A stretch of DNA of 64,000 bases from a virus: the IMG/VR virus record IMGVR_UViG_3300025018_000098, positions 96,001 to 160,000 of that record. The stretch is one strand, 5' to 3'. Shown one piece after another: positions 4,558 to 51,490 of the stretch. Under the pieces are notes generated by a model that was given only the letters and a program-made list of their open reading frames with translations, was not told the origin of the DNA and ran no database searches. How positions within the stretch are numbered: position 1 is the first letter of the stretch; every line of letters begins with the position of its first letter. The translations under genes were made by a program, and so were the position numbers.

Positions 4558-4856
4558 GCCGATTCGTCCTGTTGAATCTGCCTCAAACCATCGAGGAACT
4601 CGCGGAGCCCTGAAAAGCCGGGGAAGATCTCTGTAAACCGTCTCACTACAAAGTCATGGGCGGCGTCCAGATCGGCATCGCTAGGGGTGAGCCCCCCGAG
4701 GAACACCGCGGTGTGTAGTTCCTCTTCAATCGTGGACTTCAGCGCTGGGTTGGTCGCCAACCAGAAAGGCAGCCATGTCCACGTGATCTCAACCACACCA
4801 TCTCGTTCTTGTACCAGCCGCATCAAAGCCCTCGAACTGTTGCCTGCATGAGCCAA
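4554..4856 (-). CDS. Hypothetical protein (start may be at 4823)
   Basis: ORF tiling. Confidence 0.6.
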   Translation of the reverse strand: MAHAGNSSRALMRLVQERDGVVEITWTWLPFWLATNPALKSTIEEELHTAVFLGGLTPSDADLDAAHDFVVRRFTEIFPGFSGLREFLDGLRQIQQDESA

Positions 4857-6490
4857 GCCGTGGCATCCGTACGATCATCCGCATGGGTCCAGTCTCGCTC
4901 AATGGTGAACCAGAATGGCTTATCTGCGACAAGTCCTGCAAGCGTAATCGGCACCTCGTACATCGTGTTGCGCGCCGTGAAGGCAACGCTGGCGTCGATG
5001 ATGTTCGGAGGCATGACGTAGGGGGACACGCTGCCGTACCGAACACGGAAGCGGGCAAGGTCATCGCCGGAGCCATCGCTCTCCGCGGTGAGGTAGAGGC
5101 GCAAGACCGGACTGGACACCCCGGTGTACGCTTGGAACCAAGGTCGCATGAAGCGCCCACCTGCGCTGACCACGAAGTTGCGGATGTACCCCGTCGTGGC
5201 GTTGGCGTCGTGTACACCGAACTGGGCGTAGAGCTCGTTGGACAGCGGTGCGGCTCCCGCGGCGTCCGCAACGCTCAGGTTGGGGGAGGTCAGGTCGTTG
5301 TGATTCCAGTACACATCGTCGGTCTGTGTTCGGTTCACAACCAGGCCCGTGTTTTGCCAGCCTCGTAGGTCCTGGAAGGAGGCGCCCAAGGGGTTGGCAG
5401 CACTTGTGAGGGGGGAGAGTCCAGTCCTTCCTGTAACAATGGCCAAGCCTCCGAGTGGTTTGTACAACACACCCCCACCCTTGTAGTCGGTGTCTCCCGT
5501 GTCCGAGTAGAACCCATCGAAGGTGAGCCCGTCGAATCCACCGGCACCTCCAGTGAGGATCATGGCCCGGGAGTACGTGAAGACCTGCGTAGGAGCACTC
5601 GCCAGAGCTAGGCTCTGCGTGTACCGAATGTCCCCGCCTGCGCTGTTGAGGGCCAGGACCCCGGCGCTGGCCAAGGAGAAGTCCCCGGCAGGCCCAGTTC
5701 CGACCTTCGTGAACCCTTGCGCGGCCGGATCCGTGCCGAACCGAGCGTCATACTCGATGACGCCCTGTACTCGGTCGAAGGGGATACCTCGTACCGCGCT
5801 CTGCTGTGGCTGCACGCTGTTGGTCTTGTACTTCCAGGCATGTTCTACCCAAAAGGCCGGAGCACCGTTGAGGTCGGCATCGCTGGGGTTGAGTGTGATC
5901 ACGGTGTTCTCCAGATATACGCTACCGAGCTCGAGCTCGTAGCCTGTGCATGTGTTGACGAGGGTGACTTCATAGATGCCGTCTTCAGACACGACTGGCA
6001 GGGGGGCACTGTACCGGGTGTCCGCAACCAGACCAGCCCCTGGTGTAGGTACTGGCCCCTCTAACGGGATACTCGAGGTCAGTACCGGTTGTAGCGGACC
6101 AACATCCCTCTTGACGTCCTGCAGGAACACCTCTCCGAAGGGGCCCTCGAAGCGTACATAAAGACATGCCGCATCTACATCCGCAGTACTAGGGATGTAG
6201 ATGCGAGAGCCTGCCCGGTACCCGCCCAGGAAGGCGCCCGTGACTAGGGTGCGTTGAGATCGCCTACGCTGGCAGCTCTCACACGTGATGGAGGCCTCGA
6301 CGATGGGTGTAGTCACGCTGAAGAGGCCATACTCCCCAACACCCAGCCCTGCCCCGAGGGAGCCTCCGAGCGGAGTTGCCCCAAAGCCACCCCCAGTGTC
6401 GTACAAGAACCACTGCGAGACGGTAGTTGTGCTCGTGGCTCTGGACTCTCTGAAGCGACGGTAGCCGCAGGTGCAGCGCTCGTTGGCCAT
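4823..6490 (-). CDS. Putative virion structural protein, beta-rich, with N-terminal Cys pairs
   Basis: 555 aa, rich in G/T/S/A and aromatic residues; in an operon with tail-like genes. Confidence 0.55.
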   Translation of the reverse strand: MANERCTCGYRRFRESRATSTTTVSQWFLYDTGGGFGATPLGGSLGAGLGVGEYGLFSVTTPIVEASITCESCQRRRSQRTLVTGAFLGGYRAGSRIYIPSTADVDAACLYVRFEGPFGEVFLQDVKRDVGPLQPVLTSSIPLEGPVPTPGAGLVADTRYSAPLPVVSEDGIYEVTLVNTCTGYELELGSVYLENTVITLNPSDADLNGAPAFWVEHAWKYKTNSVQPQQSAVRGIPFDRVQGVIEYDARFGTDPAAQGFTKVGTGPAGDFSLASAGVLALNSAGGDIRYTQSLALASAPTQVFTYSRAMILTGGAGGFDGLTFDGFYSDTGDTDYKGGGVLYKPLGGLAIVTGRTGLSPLTSAANPLGASFQDLRGWQNTGLVVNRTQTDDVYWNHNDLTSPNLSVADAAGAAPLSNELYAQFGVHDANATTGYIRNFVVSAGGRFMRPWFQAYTGVSSPVLRLYLTAESDGSGDDLARFRVRYGSVSPYVMPPNIIDASVAFTARNTMYEVPITLAGLVADKPFWFTIERDWTHADDRTDATAWLMQATVRGL

Positions 6491-6882
6491 CAGCGTGTGT
6501 CCTTGAGCAAGTTGATGAGCGTCGTGATGAAGCCTGCAAAGGCTGCGATCACCGCCACGACCACAGTGGCTAGTGTGCGGTACTTGGCGCTGTCCCGCTG
6601 AACCCCGGCCACCTCGCCCGCGGCGCTGAGCTCGAGGGCTCGGACCTTGGTGGTGTCCTTCTCGGAGTTCCGCTCCTGAGTATCGATCCTGTGCATGAGC
6701 AGCGTCAGCTTCTTCTCGTTCTCGTGGACGGACGTAGACACAGCTGTAACGGCAGCCCGAACCTCTCCAATGGTTCGGTCATTCTGCTCCAGGAGCATGT
6801 TCAGGCTGGCCACAGCGAGGGTGAGGTCGCTCCGCAACTGATTGACCTCCTTGGCCAGCTCCTTGTAGTCCTCGGGGCTCAT
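6490..6882 (-). CDS. Coiled-coil protein with one C-terminal TM helix (holin/XhlA-like architecture)
   Basis: Heptad-rich N-terminus followed by TLATVVVAVIAAFAGFITTLINLL. Confidence 0.5.
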   Translation of the reverse strand: MSPEDYKELAKEVNQLRSDLTLAVASLNMLLEQNDRTIGEVRAAVTAVSTSVHENEKKLTLLMHRIDTQERNSEKDTTKVRALELSAAGEVAGVQRDSAKYRTLATVVVAVIAAFAGFITTLINLLKDTR

Positions 6883-7652
6883 GACGTGCCCTCCTTACGA
6901 CGAATGATGTCGTACAGATTCCCTCGAGCCTCTGCCGCACTTGTGGGCGGGGCAATATCTTGCGTGATTCGCGTCATGTTCTTCGTAGCCAAGTCCTGCA
7001 CAGAGCTTGTCCGGGCCCTGCGCTCGCCGCGTAGTGTACTTCGTATGTCCTTGAGCACCCCATCGATGCCGTACTTCTCTGCAAGAGCCTCAAAGGGTTC
7101 GATGTGGCTTCGAGCACTCCTGTGTATGTACGTGTCCACCTCGGCTAGGTACTCCACGATCTTCAAGAGGTGGCCCCGGAGCAGGGCAAGCGCCGGGTCC
7201 TCCACAGTTGGGGTCTCCTGCATCATCCGCAGAGACTCCTGGGTCAACCCTTGTGTGACCTCCCGATTCTGGTTGCGGCGGATCGACATCATAATGGTGC
7301 GCTCGAGCGCCTGACCCTGGATCTCATTCTTGATGAGGTAGTCCTGCGCACCAAGAGAGATGCACCTCGAGGCTGTACCCATGTCGTCGTACCCGGTTGT
7401 GACAATCACGACAGCAGAGGGGTACTTGTGCAGGAAGGTCACCGCAGTATCGATGCCCATTGAATCTGGCAGTGTGAGGTCCAGCAGCACCACATCGATG
7501 GGTTGGGTATCCATGACCAACAAAGCAGAGCTCAGGTACTCTGTGTGGGTCACCTCAAACTGATACTGCGTCGACTTACTCAACAGGCGCTTGAAGTAGA
7601 CTGTGTCTCCTTCATTGTCCTCAACTAGAAGTACCCGAATGGCTGTATTCAT
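6879..7652 (-). CDS. Response regulator: REC domain plus ~130-aa unrecognised helical C-terminal domain
   Basis: VLLVEDNEGD, DVVLLDLTLPDSMG (phospho-acceptor Asp), IVTTG, GAQDYLIK. Confidence 0.9.
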   Translation of the reverse strand: MNTAIRVLLVEDNEGDTVYFKRLLSKSTQYQFEVTHTEYLSSALLVMDTQPIDVVLLDLTLPDSMGIDTAVTFLHKYPSAVVIVTTGYDDMGTASRCISLGAQDYLIKNEIQGQALERTIMMSIRRNQNREVTQGLTQESLRMMQETPTVEDPALALLRGHLLKIVEYLAEVDTYIHRSARSHIEPFEALAEKYGIDGVLKDIRSTLRGERRARTSSVQDLATKNMTRITQDIAPPTSAAEARGNLYDIIRRKEGTS

Positions 7653-8077
7653 GATGCGATCTCGGCAAACTCAAACCAGTGCCTGTAGATAGTACCTGCC
7701 AGCTGCCTAAATGTCTCTGGGTCCCCTGGCTTCACCATGTAGCAGTTGGCGCTCATGTCGTAGGCCACCAGTATGTCCTCGTGCGCTCGAGAGCTCGTCA
7801 GGATGAGGACAGGTATGCGGCGCAGTACAGGGTCTCGTTTGATCTCCGCTAAAACGTCCTGCCCGGAACGCAGAGGCAAGTTGAGATCAAGTAGGATGAG
7901 GTCTGGTTGCGGCTCCTTGGGGTCCCGAAGATATTCTAGTGCCAAGACCCCGTTTTCGACAGAATGGATGTGTGCCTGCTGGGTGATCCTGTTGAACGCG
8001 CGCCGAGTCAGTACAACATCACCTGGGTTGTCCTCAACAAGTAGTATCCGTCGTAGTTTGGGGGGAGTCGAAGTCAC
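7649..8077 (-). CDS. Single-domain response regulator, Rcp1-like
   Basis: ILLVEDNPGD, PDLILLDLNLP, LRRIPVLILTSS, ANCYMVKP, HWF. Confidence 0.93.
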   Translation of the reverse strand: MTSTPPKLRRILLVEDNPGDVVLTRRAFNRITQQAHIHSVENGVLALEYLRDPKEPQPDLILLDLNLPLRSGQDVLAEIKRDPVLRRIPVLILTSSRAHEDILVAYDMSANCYMVKPGDPETFRQLAGTIYRHWFEFAEIAS

Positions 8078-9530
8078 GGGGCGGCCCTTCTGGCTTCATA
8101 AGAGTGAATGTGAACGTCGTTCCTACGTTCGGGACGGAGTCTACGCGAATGGTGCCTCCATGTCGCTCCACAATCTTCTTGCAGATGGCGAGACCGATGC
8201 CGGTGCCTCGCTTCGTACTGCTTAGTCGCTGAAAGATCATGAACACCTTGTCAGCGTAGGCCATATCGAAGCCTTCGCCGTTATCCTGCACGGTAATCGT
8301 CCAGTTATCCCCTGTGTCCACACAGTTGATGAACACCTCAGGGTCTTGATCCTTTGAACGGAACTTGATCGCGTTGCCAATGAGGTTCTGGAACAGCAGG
8401 GTCAGCATCATCTGATCGGAGAACACCGCGGGCATTGGACCCATGTGCACTTTCGCGTTCCGCTCCTCAAGGAACGTGTCCAAGTTGGCCAGCGCTCCAT
8501 CAATGGCCTCGGACGCTAATGCCCACTGAAAGGTCTCCTCGCGCCCTACTCGAGAGAACGCGAGCAATCCTCGGATCATGGCCCGCATCCGAGAGGCCCC
8601 GCCCACCATGAAGTCTAGGTACTGCCTACCCTCTGTACTGAACACATCCCCATAATCCTCCTCGAGAATCTTGGCGAAGTTTATGATCATTCGAAGAGGT
8701 TCCTGTAGGTCGTGCGATGCCACGTAGGCAAAGCTCTCAAGGTCTTCATTCGAGCGCTTCAGGTCCTCTGCCTGTCGGGCGAGCCTCGAGTCCACAGTCA
8801 TCTGGTTTGTGATGTCCATACACACACCAAGAAAGTGGTGGGCCTCCCCCTTCCGGTACACGATCTCACCCCGAGCCGCAATAAACCGCCCACCGTTCGT
8901 ACGGTAAGTCACTCGGTACGGATGGTCTTCGCTCTTCTTAGCTAGTTCGATGGCGTCCCGAATGACCTCGTGGTCGTCCGAGTGAACATGTTTCCAGAAC
9001 TCATCGATCTTCCCGCTGAACGTCTCGGGGTCTGCATCAAACATCTCCATCATCTGGGGATCCCAAACTAGAGCATCTGTGGCAAACTCCCAGCGCCAAA
9101 CACCGGCCTTTGCTGCGTCTAGGGCCAGGCGGAGATGTTGCTCGCTCCTCGCGAGCTTTTGGTAGGCGAGGTACTCCTCCGTGGCATCCTCCAGCATCAC
9201 AGAAGCGGTTCGGGGACGGACCCAGGTTATGTACGTCCGATAGACCCGCCCACGCAGGCTCACCGATATGATGTCTGGCTGCCCTCCTCGGGCAGCCTCA
9301 GCGACCTCATCTGCCAGATTGGAGGCACCCAGCAGCGGCAGCGGGATGTCGCCTATCGACGCACCCACGTATTGGCGGAGGTCCGTGCCGTCCAACGCCT
9401 TGTTGTTGGCCCACAGCAATACGAGCTCACGGGAGGAGCTCGTATCGTTTGGCAGCTCCCAAACTGTAGTGGCCAGCGGCAGCCGCTGGATCACAGCGTT
9501 GAGTAAGTGGGGCACTAGGCGCCGGCCCAT
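8034..9530 (-). CDS. Cytoplasmic PAS-PAS sensor histidine kinase (HisKA plus HATPase_c)
   Basis: H-box FAYVASHDLQEPLR, N-box QNLIGNAIKF, G1 VQDNGEG, F-box VFMIFQRL, G2 GTGIGLAICKKIVERHGG. PAS motifs GVWRWE..HSDD..GVCMDIT. No TM helix. Confidence 0.95.
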   Translation of the reverse strand: MGRRLVPHLLNAVIQRLPLATTVWELPNDTSSSRELVLLWANNKALDGTDLRQYVGASIGDIPLPLLGASNLADEVAEAARGGQPDIISVSLRGRVYRTYITWVRPRTASVMLEDATEEYLAYQKLARSEQHLRLALDAAKAGVWRWEFATDALVWDPQMMEMFDADPETFSGKIDEFWKHVHSDDHEVIRDAIELAKKSEDHPYRVTYRTNGGRFIAARGEIVYRKGEAHHFLGVCMDITNQMTVDSRLARQAEDLKRSNEDLESFAYVASHDLQEPLRMIINFAKILEEDYGDVFSTEGRQYLDFMVGGASRMRAMIRGLLAFSRVGREETFQWALASEAIDGALANLDTFLEERNAKVHMGPMPAVFSDQMMLTLLFQNLIGNAIKFRSKDQDPEVFINCVDTGDNWTITVQDNGEGFDMAYADKVFMIFQRLSSTKRGTGIGLAICKKIVERHGGTIRVDSVPNVGTTFTFTLMKPEGPPRDFDSPQTTTDTTC

Positions 9531-10210
9531 TCCTGAGAGATGTACGCGGGGACGTCTGCGTCATACGGGCCATCGTAGACGTAGCCCGCAATCCAGTCGC
9601 CGTTCATCGGGTAAAACGCACCGTTGGTCGCGCCGAGCGTCAGCGGCATGTTTGCCTGAAACGTGGAGCCGCCTTGAGCTTTCGGGTATGTCCCTGTCGG
9701 ATCGCGTAGCGTCATGGTACCGCCTGCGATCGTCTCCAACGAGAACTGAAACAGGGAGCCCATGTACATCGGTATGCCCAAGAAGCTATTGGGCGACGCT
9801 ACCGAGTATGGGACGTACTCGTTGCCCGTGGTCCATGCACCTAGCCAATGCGGCCCACCACCAAAAATGGCGCGGTAGTTCGTCGACACGTTGTCCATCT
9901 GACCCACAAAGTAGTAGGTGCGCGTGCCCCCAACCACTGCCGGTGTGATGCTGAAGTTGGCGTTATAGAGACGCCTGCCCCCAGCGAACCGAATCGCGGT
10001 ATGACCGCCGATGGTCGAGATTGTCGGGCGCGTCGACGGACTGGTCATCGTGTAGCCGTTGCCGCTGACATCAGGGACCGAGTCCACGTCGCCAGAAACA
10101 AGCACGGCATCACGTGCTTCCCAGCCGCCGCGAAGGTCCGTAGTCGGTAGAGTGAGCGCGGGCGCGCCGCTCACCCCCGCCGCAGCGATAGCTCCTACGC
10201 TCGACAACAT
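9515..10210 (-). CDS. LamG/ConA-like tail-associated protein (start re-called at 10210)
   Basis: WEARD..DVSGNG..PTI..FAGG..LTLGA..NG pattern of phage LamG-like domains; TGATG overlap with the upstream gene. Confidence 0.6.
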   Translation of the reverse strand: MLSSVGAIAAAGVSGAPALTLPTTDLRGGWEARDAVLVSGDVDSVPDVSGNGYTMTSPSTRPTISTIGGHTAIRFAGGRRLYNANFSITPAVVGGTRTYYFVGQMDNVSTNYRAIFGGGPHWLGAWTTGNEYVPYSVASPNSFLGIPMYMGSLFQFSLETIAGGTMTLRDPTGTYPKAQGGSTFQANMPLTLGATNGAFYPMNGDWIAGYVYDGPYDADVPAYISQEWAGA

Positions 10211-12057: not shown

Positions 12058-12063
12058 GTCCGG

Positions 12064-12072
12064 AGTGTACCA
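12064..12072 (-). promoter_or_regulatory. Extended -10 (TGGTACACT) just upstream of the structural/signalling operon
   Basis: Minus strand reads tggtacact-ccggac-ATG; a similar TGGTAGACT precedes the gene starting at 62694. Confidence 0.35.
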
Positions 12073-12740: not shown

Positions 12741-13160
12741 CTATACGATGGTCTCGGGCCCTTCCCCGTCGTTGTACACGAAGAGGAGGTCGGCCGGCTT
12801 GAGCAGAATGATCCCTGCACCGAACTGATGCTGGATATGCTCGTTGGTCGCTTGCTTGTCCCGGAAGCGGAGGAAGCAGCACTTGAGCCCCACCTCGAGA
12901 TCGGGGATGGGCACAGGCTCCTCGAGGAACTTCTGACGCCCATACTTCTTGGGGATCGAGCGGATGTAACCGAACGCCAGGATGGTGGCCGTGGTGTAGA
13001 TGGACTCGATGGCCTTCTCACTGGCCTTGAAGATGAGCCCAGACGTCGTCTTGTCCGACGTCGGATCCACACGCACCAGGATGTGCTCGTTCACGAGCTG
13101 GAAGCTGCGCCCATCCTCGAAGGTACACTCGTCATATGGGTGTCGCTCAGCCATAACCAT
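12741..13160 (-). CDS. groES: GroES/Cpn10-like co-chaperonin
   Basis: HILVRVD..KTTSGLI mobile loop, ATILAFG, LEVG, IILLKPADLL. Confidence 0.7.
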   Translation of the reverse strand: MVMAERHPYDECTFEDGRSFQLVNEHILVRVDPTSDKTTSGLIFKASEKAIESIYTTATILAFGYIRSIPKKYGRQKFLEEPVPIPDLEVGLKCCFLRFRDKQATNEHIQHQFGAGIILLKPADLLFVYNDGEGPETIV

Positions 13161-40077: not shown

Positions 40078-40626
40078 CTACGAGCGGTCGTACACGCTCC
40101 AGAAGAGGTTGGGCGGCAGACGCCGCTCGGGGTATTGGAAGTCGACCAAGCACTCCACTTGTCGGGAGCCTGGACCCGGACTGCCATCCTGCACACTACC
40201 CCAGTGTCGGGCGCCCGGACACGGATTGCGCGCCTCACCGGACAGGGTACTGCGCACCGCATTGACGGTGTCTGCCCACTTCGCTTGAAGCGAGGGGCGC
40301 AGACGTGCAGGCCGTTCTGGCTCAGGGAGGCGAAGGCGTAGGATGTGCTCGCGCCTTCCTCGGAACACGGCTGAGTAACCACGCGCCACGGTAGCTAGCC
40401 GAGCTCGAGGTACGAGGTTGTCTCGCCGCCACATAATGACGTGTGTCACCGCGGCGCACTCTTCTGTAGTGGCTCCCTCCCAGCCCACCTCCCCGATGCA
40501 CATTTGCGCCAGTGTGAGGACATCTCGCTCATTGGTCTCGGGCGGGGATCGATCCCCCAGGGCCTCTGGCGTAGCGAGTAGAAGGGACATACAGATCATC
40601 GAACAGATTAGGAGCAGCTTGCGCAT
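40078..40626 (-). CDS. Secreted SleB/Hydrolase_2-like cell wall hydrolase
   Basis: Signal peptide; TLAQMCIGEVG (catalytic Glu), AAVTHVIMWR, NPCPGARHW. Confidence 0.65.
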   Translation of the reverse strand: MRKLLLICSMICMSLLLATPEALGDRSPPETNERDVLTLAQMCIGEVGWEGATTEECAAVTHVIMWRRDNLVPRARLATVARGYSAVFRGRREHILRLRLPEPERPARLRPSLQAKWADTVNAVRSTLSGEARNPCPGARHWGSVQDGSPGPGSRQVECLVDFQYPERRLPPNLFWSVYDRS

Positions 40627-50623: not shown

Positions 50624-51490
50624 TTAGCGGCGTGGACGATAAGGGACACCAGTGTACCGGCTATCCCAAGCCTCTGGGATGGGGGCACCCTCTCGCAGCG
50701 TGTAGCCGGGCCCGCCGTCGGTCAGGCCGAGCTCGCGCTGTGCCCACATGCCCACCTCTTGCCAGACCTTGGAGCCCGGGTCGCTCAGCTTCATCCCATT
50801 CGTCTGTCGGTGGGCGTGGATGTGTCTGAGCCTTCCGCCTTCATCGTAGACAGTGTTGTAAATGTGGGTGACCAACAACCGGGTGTCATGGATCTGCTGG
50901 TCAGTGATGCTGTCCGGCCCTGGGTTGCCTGCGAAGCCACCCTTCCATGCCGTACGGGGGTCCCCTTCGATCCCAGCAAAGCATCCGTTGATCTCGATAC
51001 CCACGTCCGGCTTGTTGAAGGCGTTCCCGTGCCACACGATCGAACGCATGTCGTGCATCTGCACAACACCATGGAAGGGGCGTTCCCGAATCACGGCAAA
51101 GTGGGCTGGGACGTTCTTGAAGCGCTCCGGCTTGTTCGACATCATGATGCCGGTCTGGTGCAGCGTGATCCCTGTGATGTCCTTCCACGCCCGGGACCCT
51201 TTGATGATGTTGCCTTTGCTTGGTGTCGTGCGGGCGATGTCGAGCAGCCCTACCCGGGGCGGCCTACTCTTGGCCCCGATGATCGTCTCGATGAGGGCAT
51301 CAGGTACCGACTCCATAAAAGCCGTCGCGTCAATGCCGTGGTCATGCGCGTACTCCTGCACGGCGTGCAGAGTCTCGTACCCAAAGTCACCGTCAGCTCC
51401 GTACTTCGGAAGGTCATACTCGAGGGCGAGTAGTGCCCCCTGCAGCTTCAGCACATCGGCGCCCTTAGTTTTTCGTACTAGGAATGGCAT
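50624..51490 (-). CDS. Endolysin: PG-binding domain plus Amidase_2 N-acetylmuramoyl-L-alanine amidase
   Basis: GADVLKLQ..GADGDFG.ET..AV; ITLHQT, AHF, WHG, GIEI, HAHRQ..DPG. Confidence 0.88.
   Translation of the reverse strand: MPFLVRKTKGADVLKLQGALLALEYDLPKYGADGDFGYETLHAVQEYAHDHGIDATAFMESVPDALIETIIGAKSRPPRVGLLDIARTTPSKGNIIKGSRAWKDITGITLHQTGIMMSNKPERFKNVPAHFAVIRERPFHGVVQMHDMRSIVWHGNAFNKPDVGIEINGCFAGIEGDPRTAWKGGFAGNPGPDSITDQQIHDTRLLVTHIYNTVYDEGGRLRHIHAHRQTNGMKLSDPGSKVWQEVGMWAQRELGLTDGGPGYTLREGAPIPEAWDSRYTGVPYRPRR

Follow-up and report, generated by a model that had tools for sequence, protein, structure and literature searches.

Complete two-component systems are regarded as cellular, and the locus described here raises the question of what such a system is doing among the virion genes of a phage. 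The window (the whole 64,000-nucleotide stretch of DNA analyzed) comprises bases 96001-160000 of one 168,874-bp virus record, IMGVR_UViG_3300025018_000098, and is part of a complete 168.9-kb tailed phage. Within it lie a histidine kinase gene, genes for two response-regulator receivers (RR1 and RR2) and a gene for a small membrane protein (open reading frame 4, ORF4):

8034..9515, minus strand: histidine kinase, soluble, PAS-PAS-HisKA-HATPase, 493 amino acids, with a Cph1/bacteriophytochrome-type core and phospho-His268
7649..8077, minus strand: RR1, a single-domain Rcp1/RcpA-type receiver of 142 amino acids with phospho-Asp64
6879..7652, minus strand: RR2, a receiver with phospho-Asp58, whose alpha5 helix has a long extension and which ends in a previously undescribed all-helical tail (about amino acids 125-257)
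6490..6882, minus strand: ORF4, 130 amino acids, a coiled coil with a single C-terminal membrane helix (about amino acids 101-123) and a very short C-tail

We propose that these genes form a branched two-component module that belongs to the phage and has its output at the membrane; in it, RR1 would act as a phosphate sink and phosphorylated RR2 would control ORF4, so that lysis or membrane permeabilization would be timed to the state of the host. As a complete account this is our leading interpretation, and we hold it at a little short of an even chance.

Conservation and Integrity of the Four-Gene Module

Genes for the kinase, RR1, RR2 and a fourth protein of 113-179 amino acids occur in identical order in 18 phage-like loci, which were reached via homologues of the kinase, RR2 and RR1 (one locus is known partly from its gene list alone). 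Judged by this synteny, for which the initial annotation had asked in other phages, the module comprises four genes, and the membrane gene at 6882-6490, previously taken for a downstream neighbor, is its fourth member. In the reverse test, a profile of ORF4 alone returned 21 matches, and all four that were looked up sit directly behind a kinase-RR-RR set. One module locus adjoins a capsid of a different family (phrog_752), so the module is common to at least two capsid lineages.

Ratios of dN/dS, computed between two pairs of related phages other than this genome, were 0.11 for the kinase, 0.11-0.29 for RR1, 0.09-0.12 for RR2 (0.11-0.16 for its tail) and 0.15-0.22 for ORF4. Over the whole range of 0.09-0.29, all four genes are by this measure under purifying selection. 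All cassette genes lie on the minus strand with open frames, and their starts and stops overlap at 10210, 9515, 8034-8077, 7649-7652, 6879-6882 and 6490. The overlap chain described in the initial annotation thus stands throughout, except that the N-termini of homologues make GTG 9515, rather than ATG 9530, the most likely start of the kinase. Independent hot-spring contigs span the junctions at 10210, 9515, 8034-8077, 7650 and 6490 with zero differences; the 6879-6882 junction is not among the listed bridging pieces of that sample and is present in homologues and in a second assembly, identical over 17 kb, which is possibly the source sample. Because contigs from an independent sample bridge most junctions, the cassette is not regarded as chimeric, a concern that had been raised at the outset.

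The kinase and receivers are 40-54% identical to very common cellular kinase-Rcp1-receiver cassettes, and both subfamily matches and gene order agree with the bacterial, Cph1/Rcp1-like ancestry first suggested for them. Phylogenies (FastTree) gave a divided answer on descent: 17 of the 18 module RR2 receivers form one clade separate from cellular receivers (SH 99), whereas the kinase and RR1 trees do not settle on one origin. Among 80 metagenome and 16 GTDB loci reached via the receiver, the kinase-Rcp1-receiver order was common, and none of the 96 had the RR2 tail or a convincing ORF4 match. A GTDB scan with a single protein, a weak test, returned receiver-domain matches only. From the RR2 clade and the lack of the tail and of a convincing ORF4 match in these 96 cellular-type loci, the module looks like a bacterial Cph1/Rcp1-type cassette that was acquired in a single event and then given a different, new output. 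The term phosphorelay, applied to it initially, does not fit: no HPt domain (PF01627) was found in the complete genome (controls were positive; a host HPt is possible), and the arrangement is therefore better described as a branched two-component system than as a multistep phosphorelay. A literature search, which misses most subscription journals, found no description of the four-gene module.

A Soluble Kinase With Variable Sensor Input

Pfam, ESM Atlas (for the N-terminal PAS) and residue checks agree with the original description of an intact, soluble PAS-PAS kinase carrying all of its boxes. Pfam matched PAS_3 (E=4e-9), HisKA (E=5e-9) and HATPase_c (E=1e-25); the N-terminal domain is under the Pfam cut-off (PAS_4, E=0.0017), yet PAS-like by ESM Atlas features (0.97), and the 245-amino-acid input region consists of two PAS domains. 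With HisKA and HATPase_c domains, complete H, N, G1, F and G2 boxes (H268, N377/N381, D411, F428, G437-G441) and an acidic residue at H+1, the protein belongs to class I HisKA kinases, a family in which the acidic residue after the phosphorylated His is required for kinase activity (PMC8292422). A membrane helix was looked for in the kinase and none was found. The PAS-GAF-PHY bilin-binding photosensory module is also absent, and phytochrome matches in the PDB span the kinase core only.

Both PAS domains are present in the kinases of this phage and of loci L013, L014, L182 and L183, the first PAS alone in L001, L003, L005, L008 and L184, and a PAS_3-type domain alone in L012, L024, L028 and genome G002; sensor input is absent in L011 and L026. 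Compared in this way across module members, the sensor is exchangeable and the output side constant.

Two Receivers, a Helical Tail and a Membrane Protein

RR1 retains the key residues D64, T94 and K116, and its top PDB matches are Rcp1/RcpA-type receivers (E 1e-25 to 1e-31), as anticipated in the initial annotation; a search among INPHARED phages gave no match. In L024 the RR1 gene (7580-7990) was overlooked by the gene caller, the kinase frame extending about 240 bases into it, and its receiver frame is open.

The second receiver is equally intact (D58, T86, K108) and is followed by a tail of about 130 amino acids. An AlphaFold model of RR2 (pLDDT 87) shows the receiver, the long alpha5 extension and then five helices, and a Pfam search found no DNA-binding or enzyme domain. 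The tail is predicted to be all-helical, unlike the alpha/beta PNP, nuclease or hydrolase effectors, and has no family or fold match; searches with the tail alone gave at best generic helical hairpins (Z 7.3), Foldseek E>3 and nothing usable from the Atlas, results that do not in themselves prove a new fold. A profile search of 1.84 billion representatives returned 38 matches, nearly all of 234-298 amino acids. The 30 clusters checked all derive from metagenome or run assemblies, with none from NCBI/UniRef, and RR2-tail proteins had phage-like surroundings in every context examined. The phospho-Asp is retained in 39 of 40 rows of the RR2 alignment, and the tail carries a conserved Y-x-x-x-N-A-P motif. 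An HPt identity for the tail was considered and rejected, His161 being retained in just 28 of 40 rows. A complex prediction for the RR2 tail with ORF4 (2:2) scored 0.18 against a mark of 0.32, which gives no verdict and was not used as evidence.

Members of the ORF4 family share a conserved segment at the N-terminus and a single C-terminal hydrophobic helix, seen in all 33 rows (some of them redundant); they also have a coiled coil, with a heptad signal of p<=0.02 in 11 of 12 members. This fits the small coiled-coil plus terminal-membrane-helix layout of XhlA-like/holin proteins. Against PHROG, three of 12 members matched hemolysin (XhlA-like) phrog_1193 (best E 0.005) and two of 12 matched holin phrog_689 (best E 4e-4); the label of holin, given at first, had no significant family match. 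Within the module ORF4 is probably the target or the anchor.

Operon Setting and Slot Exchange Among Relatives

The module is borne by an operon, and the elements around it are as follows:

12058..12070, minus strand: motif G-TAnnnT-N6, a probable promoter, directly before the operon's first start codon
10210..12057, minus strand: the operon's first gene, tail-fibre-like, 615 amino acids, no family match
9515..10210, minus strand: 231-amino-acid gene, variable between relatives
4823..6490, minus strand: conserved 555-amino-acid gene that bounds the slot downstream and is found both in genomes that carry the module and in those that lack it

The motif G-TAnnnT-N6-ATG precedes more than 10 minus-strand genes in the virion-gene region, as well as the orthologous operon in relatives, and probably acts as a leaderless promoter of the type that stands ahead of virion genes; a sigma-70 consensus scan returned nothing. 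One RNA data set compared with the stretch returned nothing and is uninformative. We infer late expression of the module operon, and the tail-type operon setting of the initial annotation agrees with the motif at its head. Where the module stands alone (L008, L003), the motif lies before in-frame upstream starts of the kinase gene. Among relatives, the N-terminal 170 or so amino acids of the 615-amino-acid gene product are conserved whether or not the module is present. The 231-amino-acid product had no family matches, and the LamG-like label attached to it is unverified.

Six further complete genomes encode a capsid 72-77% identical to that of this phage, and with them the module is found in four of seven complete genomes (this phage, G002, G006 and G007). 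In G002, G006 and G007 it lies between tail-fibre-like genes and the 555-amino-acid gene. The kinase, both module receivers and ORF4 are all absent from G001, G003 and G004, where the slot is filled by a protein of 111-168 amino acids with an N-terminal membrane helix; this protein was undetected in the four module-bearing genomes by a three-row profile of limited sensitivity. Because the module-less relatives carry this N-terminally anchored protein, the slot is, in the genomes compared, always occupied by a small membrane protein, whether signaling genes are present or not. That ORF4 and the signaling genes always co-occur, and that module-less relatives hold another small membrane protein in their place, lends support to a membrane output. 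A BhlA/holin identity for the alternative slot protein was tried and rejected, since only weak matches were obtained. In two module-less relatives a helical gene of 75-86 amino acids follows the alternative membrane gene (L050:16471-16731 and L051:10591-10818, both minus strand); it has no family match and may be a partner.

Genome Context

The record has a 188-bp terminal repeat, and its products include a major head protein (phrog_2522), a large terminase, a PolA-type polymerase, DnaB, a gyrase B-like subunit and a 2059-amino-acid fused beta-beta' RNA polymerase (G000:C1:27191-33370, minus strand) related to the separate subunits of phage Arash. The closest cultured phages, Salmonella phage Arash, a myovirus (PMC10585845), and Vibrio phages D69/D148/D181, are distant, with a capsid identity of 23-27%. 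Runs containing the phage genome come from aquifer, hot-spring and cold-spring metagenomes.

An endolysin-like protein of 288 amino acids (window 50624-51490, minus strand) has an N-terminal peptidoglycan-binding domain (phrog_1493, E=2e-7) and an unrecognized catalytic domain. Three membrane genes of 123, 111 and 153 amino acids (G000:C1:60496-61657; L021:496-1657, minus strand) had no family matches and are candidates for the true holin/spanin cluster; in G004, two of them have apparent homologues next to a lone divergent receiver gene (L042:1492-1881). A 182-amino-acid product at window 40078-40626 (minus strand), with a signal-peptide-like N-terminus, resembles a cell-wall hydrolase by eye and had no Pfam or PHROG match. 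Further observations are a GroES-like co-chaperonin (window 12741-13160, minus strand; phrog_3188, E=0.001) with look-alikes in relatives, and a 50-bp inverted repeat pair of 94-96% identity about 28 kb apart (G000:C1:135360-135412 / 163924-163976).

Comparison With Known Systems

The nearest cellular analogues are Cph1/Rcp1 and the bacteriophytochrome kinases with RcpA/RcpB/DrRR receivers (PDB 1JLK, 1K68, 6XVU), which represent a common bacterial kinase-Rcp1-receiver/effector cassette. H-box type, the Rcp1-type receiver, a second receiver of the same subfamily and gene order are alike; the module differs in being phage-encoded, in lacking the phytochrome module and in having the undescribed RR2 helical tail and an obligatory membrane gene. 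Cellular cassettes often bear further catalytic domains, and RR2 has none by Pfam.

Detocs, a bacterial anti-phage system, consists of a kinase (DtcA), a buffer receiver (DtcB) and a receiver-effector (DtcC) whose effector is a PNP, nuclease or hydrolase, with some effectors transmembrane (bioRxiv 10.1101/2023.01.24.525353). The phage module resembles it in having one kinase, a stand-alone receiver, a receiver with non-transcriptional output and probably a buffer logic, and departs from it in its PAS sensors, its lack of a recognizable enzyme effector, its separate membrane protein and its virion-gene operon. PADLOC v2, the Detocs content of whose library is unchecked, gave weak receiver-type matches only and no model on the kinase. 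The agr system of Clostridioides phage phiCDHM1 likewise includes a phage-encoded histidine kinase, in that case a membrane peptide sensor (AgrC) without a phage response regulator and with proposed host signaling (PMC4124054). In contrast, the present module has a soluble kinase, two receivers and a candidate target.

Several other phages combine similar parts. Microcoleus phage My-WqHQDG (OR578706.1, metagenome-assembled) encodes a kinase, an Rcp1-type receiver, a second receiver and a coiled-coil membrane protein in the same order (WOL31350-WOL31353); these genes are annotated mostly as hypothetical, and its paper is silent on the cassette. It differs in a short RR2 tail and in an ORF4 without detectable homology to that of the module. 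In the large phages L135 and L139 a coiled-coil membrane protein lies upstream of a kinase and Rcp1-type receiver, and in phage contigs of 113-437 kb a receiver fused to a coiled coil and C-terminal membrane helix is encoded upstream of the kinase and Rcp1-type gene (L140:4027-4932, L141:4025-4957, L147:1947-2870), the fused receivers forming a separate receiver clade. Because the membrane parts are not detectably homologous to ORF4, the kinase-receiver-membrane pairing recurs by analogy. Complete kinase and Rcp1-type receiver sets were also seen in other viral contigs (L143:4945-7463, L138:4512-6854, L137:3258-6414, L149:5286-7288, L015:7901-10603), with N-terminally anchored proteins, a second receiver and a probable diguanylate cyclase as partners.

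XhlA proteins consist of a small coiled coil and a terminal membrane helix, and we know of none tied to a two-component system. ORF4 is like them in this layout and in its weak PHROG hemolysin/holin matches, and unlike them in having no significant family match and no adjoining endolysin. XhlA and BhlA are small membrane proteins of phage lysis cassettes, for example PBSX xhlA-xhlB-xlyA (PMC5589764).

Discussion

From what is known of these families, the soluble kinase would read a cytoplasmic cue, its PAS domains controlling autophosphorylation of His268, and phosphate would pass from His268 to Asp64 of RR1 and Asp58 of RR2. Because RR1 has no output domain, it may serve as a sink for phosphate and so impose a threshold or a delay, and DtcB of Detocs offers a precedent for such a buffer receiver (bioRxiv 10.1101/2023.01.24.525353). 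Phosphorylation of RR2 would rearrange its long alpha5 helix and helical tail, and the tail may bind the cytoplasmic coiled coil of ORF4, holding it or releasing it at the inner membrane. ORF4 would then be the equivalent, under signal control, of the small membrane protein that fills this slot in module-less relatives, and the process served would most likely be lysis or membrane permeabilization timed to host state. We consider an output at the membrane through ORF4 somewhat more probable than not; that the process is lysis is a more tentative suggestion, clearly below an even chance.

Several observations weigh against this interpretation. The ORF4 holin/hemolysin matches are weak (E 4e-4 to 0.05) and limited to few members, and a coiled coil can match a great many profiles. 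The module has no lysis genes beside it: the endolysin-like gene and the cluster of small membrane genes without annotation (genome 60.5-61.7 kb) are each about 41 kb away. The alternative slot protein is unclassified, its spanin, bacteriocin-associated and unknown PHROG matches all being weak (best E ~1e-3). The sensor-less kinases of L011 and L026 fit a sensing role poorly, and neither the fused receiver-membrane proteins nor the Microcoleus ORF4 have detectable homology to ORF4 or the RR2 tail.

The alternative that survives best, though we think it unlikely, is that the module hijacks host signaling, the kinase phosphorylating host receivers or the receivers draining host kinases, with motility, development or cyclic di-GMP altered and ORF4 only localizing the complex. 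The continuing similarity to very common cellular cassettes and the sensor-less kinases are in keeping with this, as is the signaling to a host regulator proposed for the phiCDHM1 agr kinase (PMC4124054). However, selection maintains the phage's two cognate receivers and an RR2 tail of its own, and cross-talk leaves unexplained the strict co-loss with ORF4 and the replacement by another membrane gene.

Two further alternatives appear improbable, each to the same degree. One is a Detocs-like system for competition or superinfection, in which the kinase would sense a second phage or a host defense, phosphorylated RR2 would make ORF4 block DNA entry or depolarize the membrane, and RR1 would avert accidental firing. 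The layout of kinase, stand-alone receiver and receiver-effector is that of Detocs, some of whose effectors are transmembrane, and the highly variable sensor region and the accessory distribution of the module over different capsid lineages would suit such a function; yet its sensors are PAS rather than TPR-type, no PADLOC model falls on the kinase, nuclease, PNP and hydrolase domains are all missing, and the phages concerned, apparently lytic, house the module in a virion-gene operon. The other is a sequestration switch in which ORF4 would anchor RR2, whose tail would act on a soluble phage target (the RNA polymerase, its sigma factor or an assembly protein) and shift the timing of transcription or assembly. 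A phage with its own fused RNA polymerase and a module among virion genes could accommodate this, and an all-helical tail with a conserved Y-x-x-x-N-A-P motif could bind a partner, but the presence of the module in a different-capsid lineage means that the target should be general, and the analogous cassettes fuse the receiver straight to a membrane protein without a tail.

Recently captured, decaying host DNA or an assembly chimera is highly improbable: the GC content of the three signaling genes (55-57%) is slightly under that of their neighbors (61-62%), but the 18 phage-like loci, the RR2 clade apart from cellular receivers, dN/dS far below 1, the bridged junctions and the terminal repeat all speak against it.

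Whatever its output, the module is a mobile unit under selection that keeps a kinase, two receivers and a membrane protein together and whose sensors can be swapped. It brings to light a receiver output domain not described before, and its slot allows a signaling module to be compared, in nature, with a plain membrane gene; the four module proteins are small enough for tests without a known host. The broadest form of our proposal, that several large lytic phage lineages gate a membrane lysis or permeabilization protein through their own phosphorylation circuit and an undescribed receiver output domain, timing host death from intracellular signals, is possible and somewhat doubtful. If the module does gate lysis, it would give lytic phages a new way of matching the timing of the burst to the physiology of the host.

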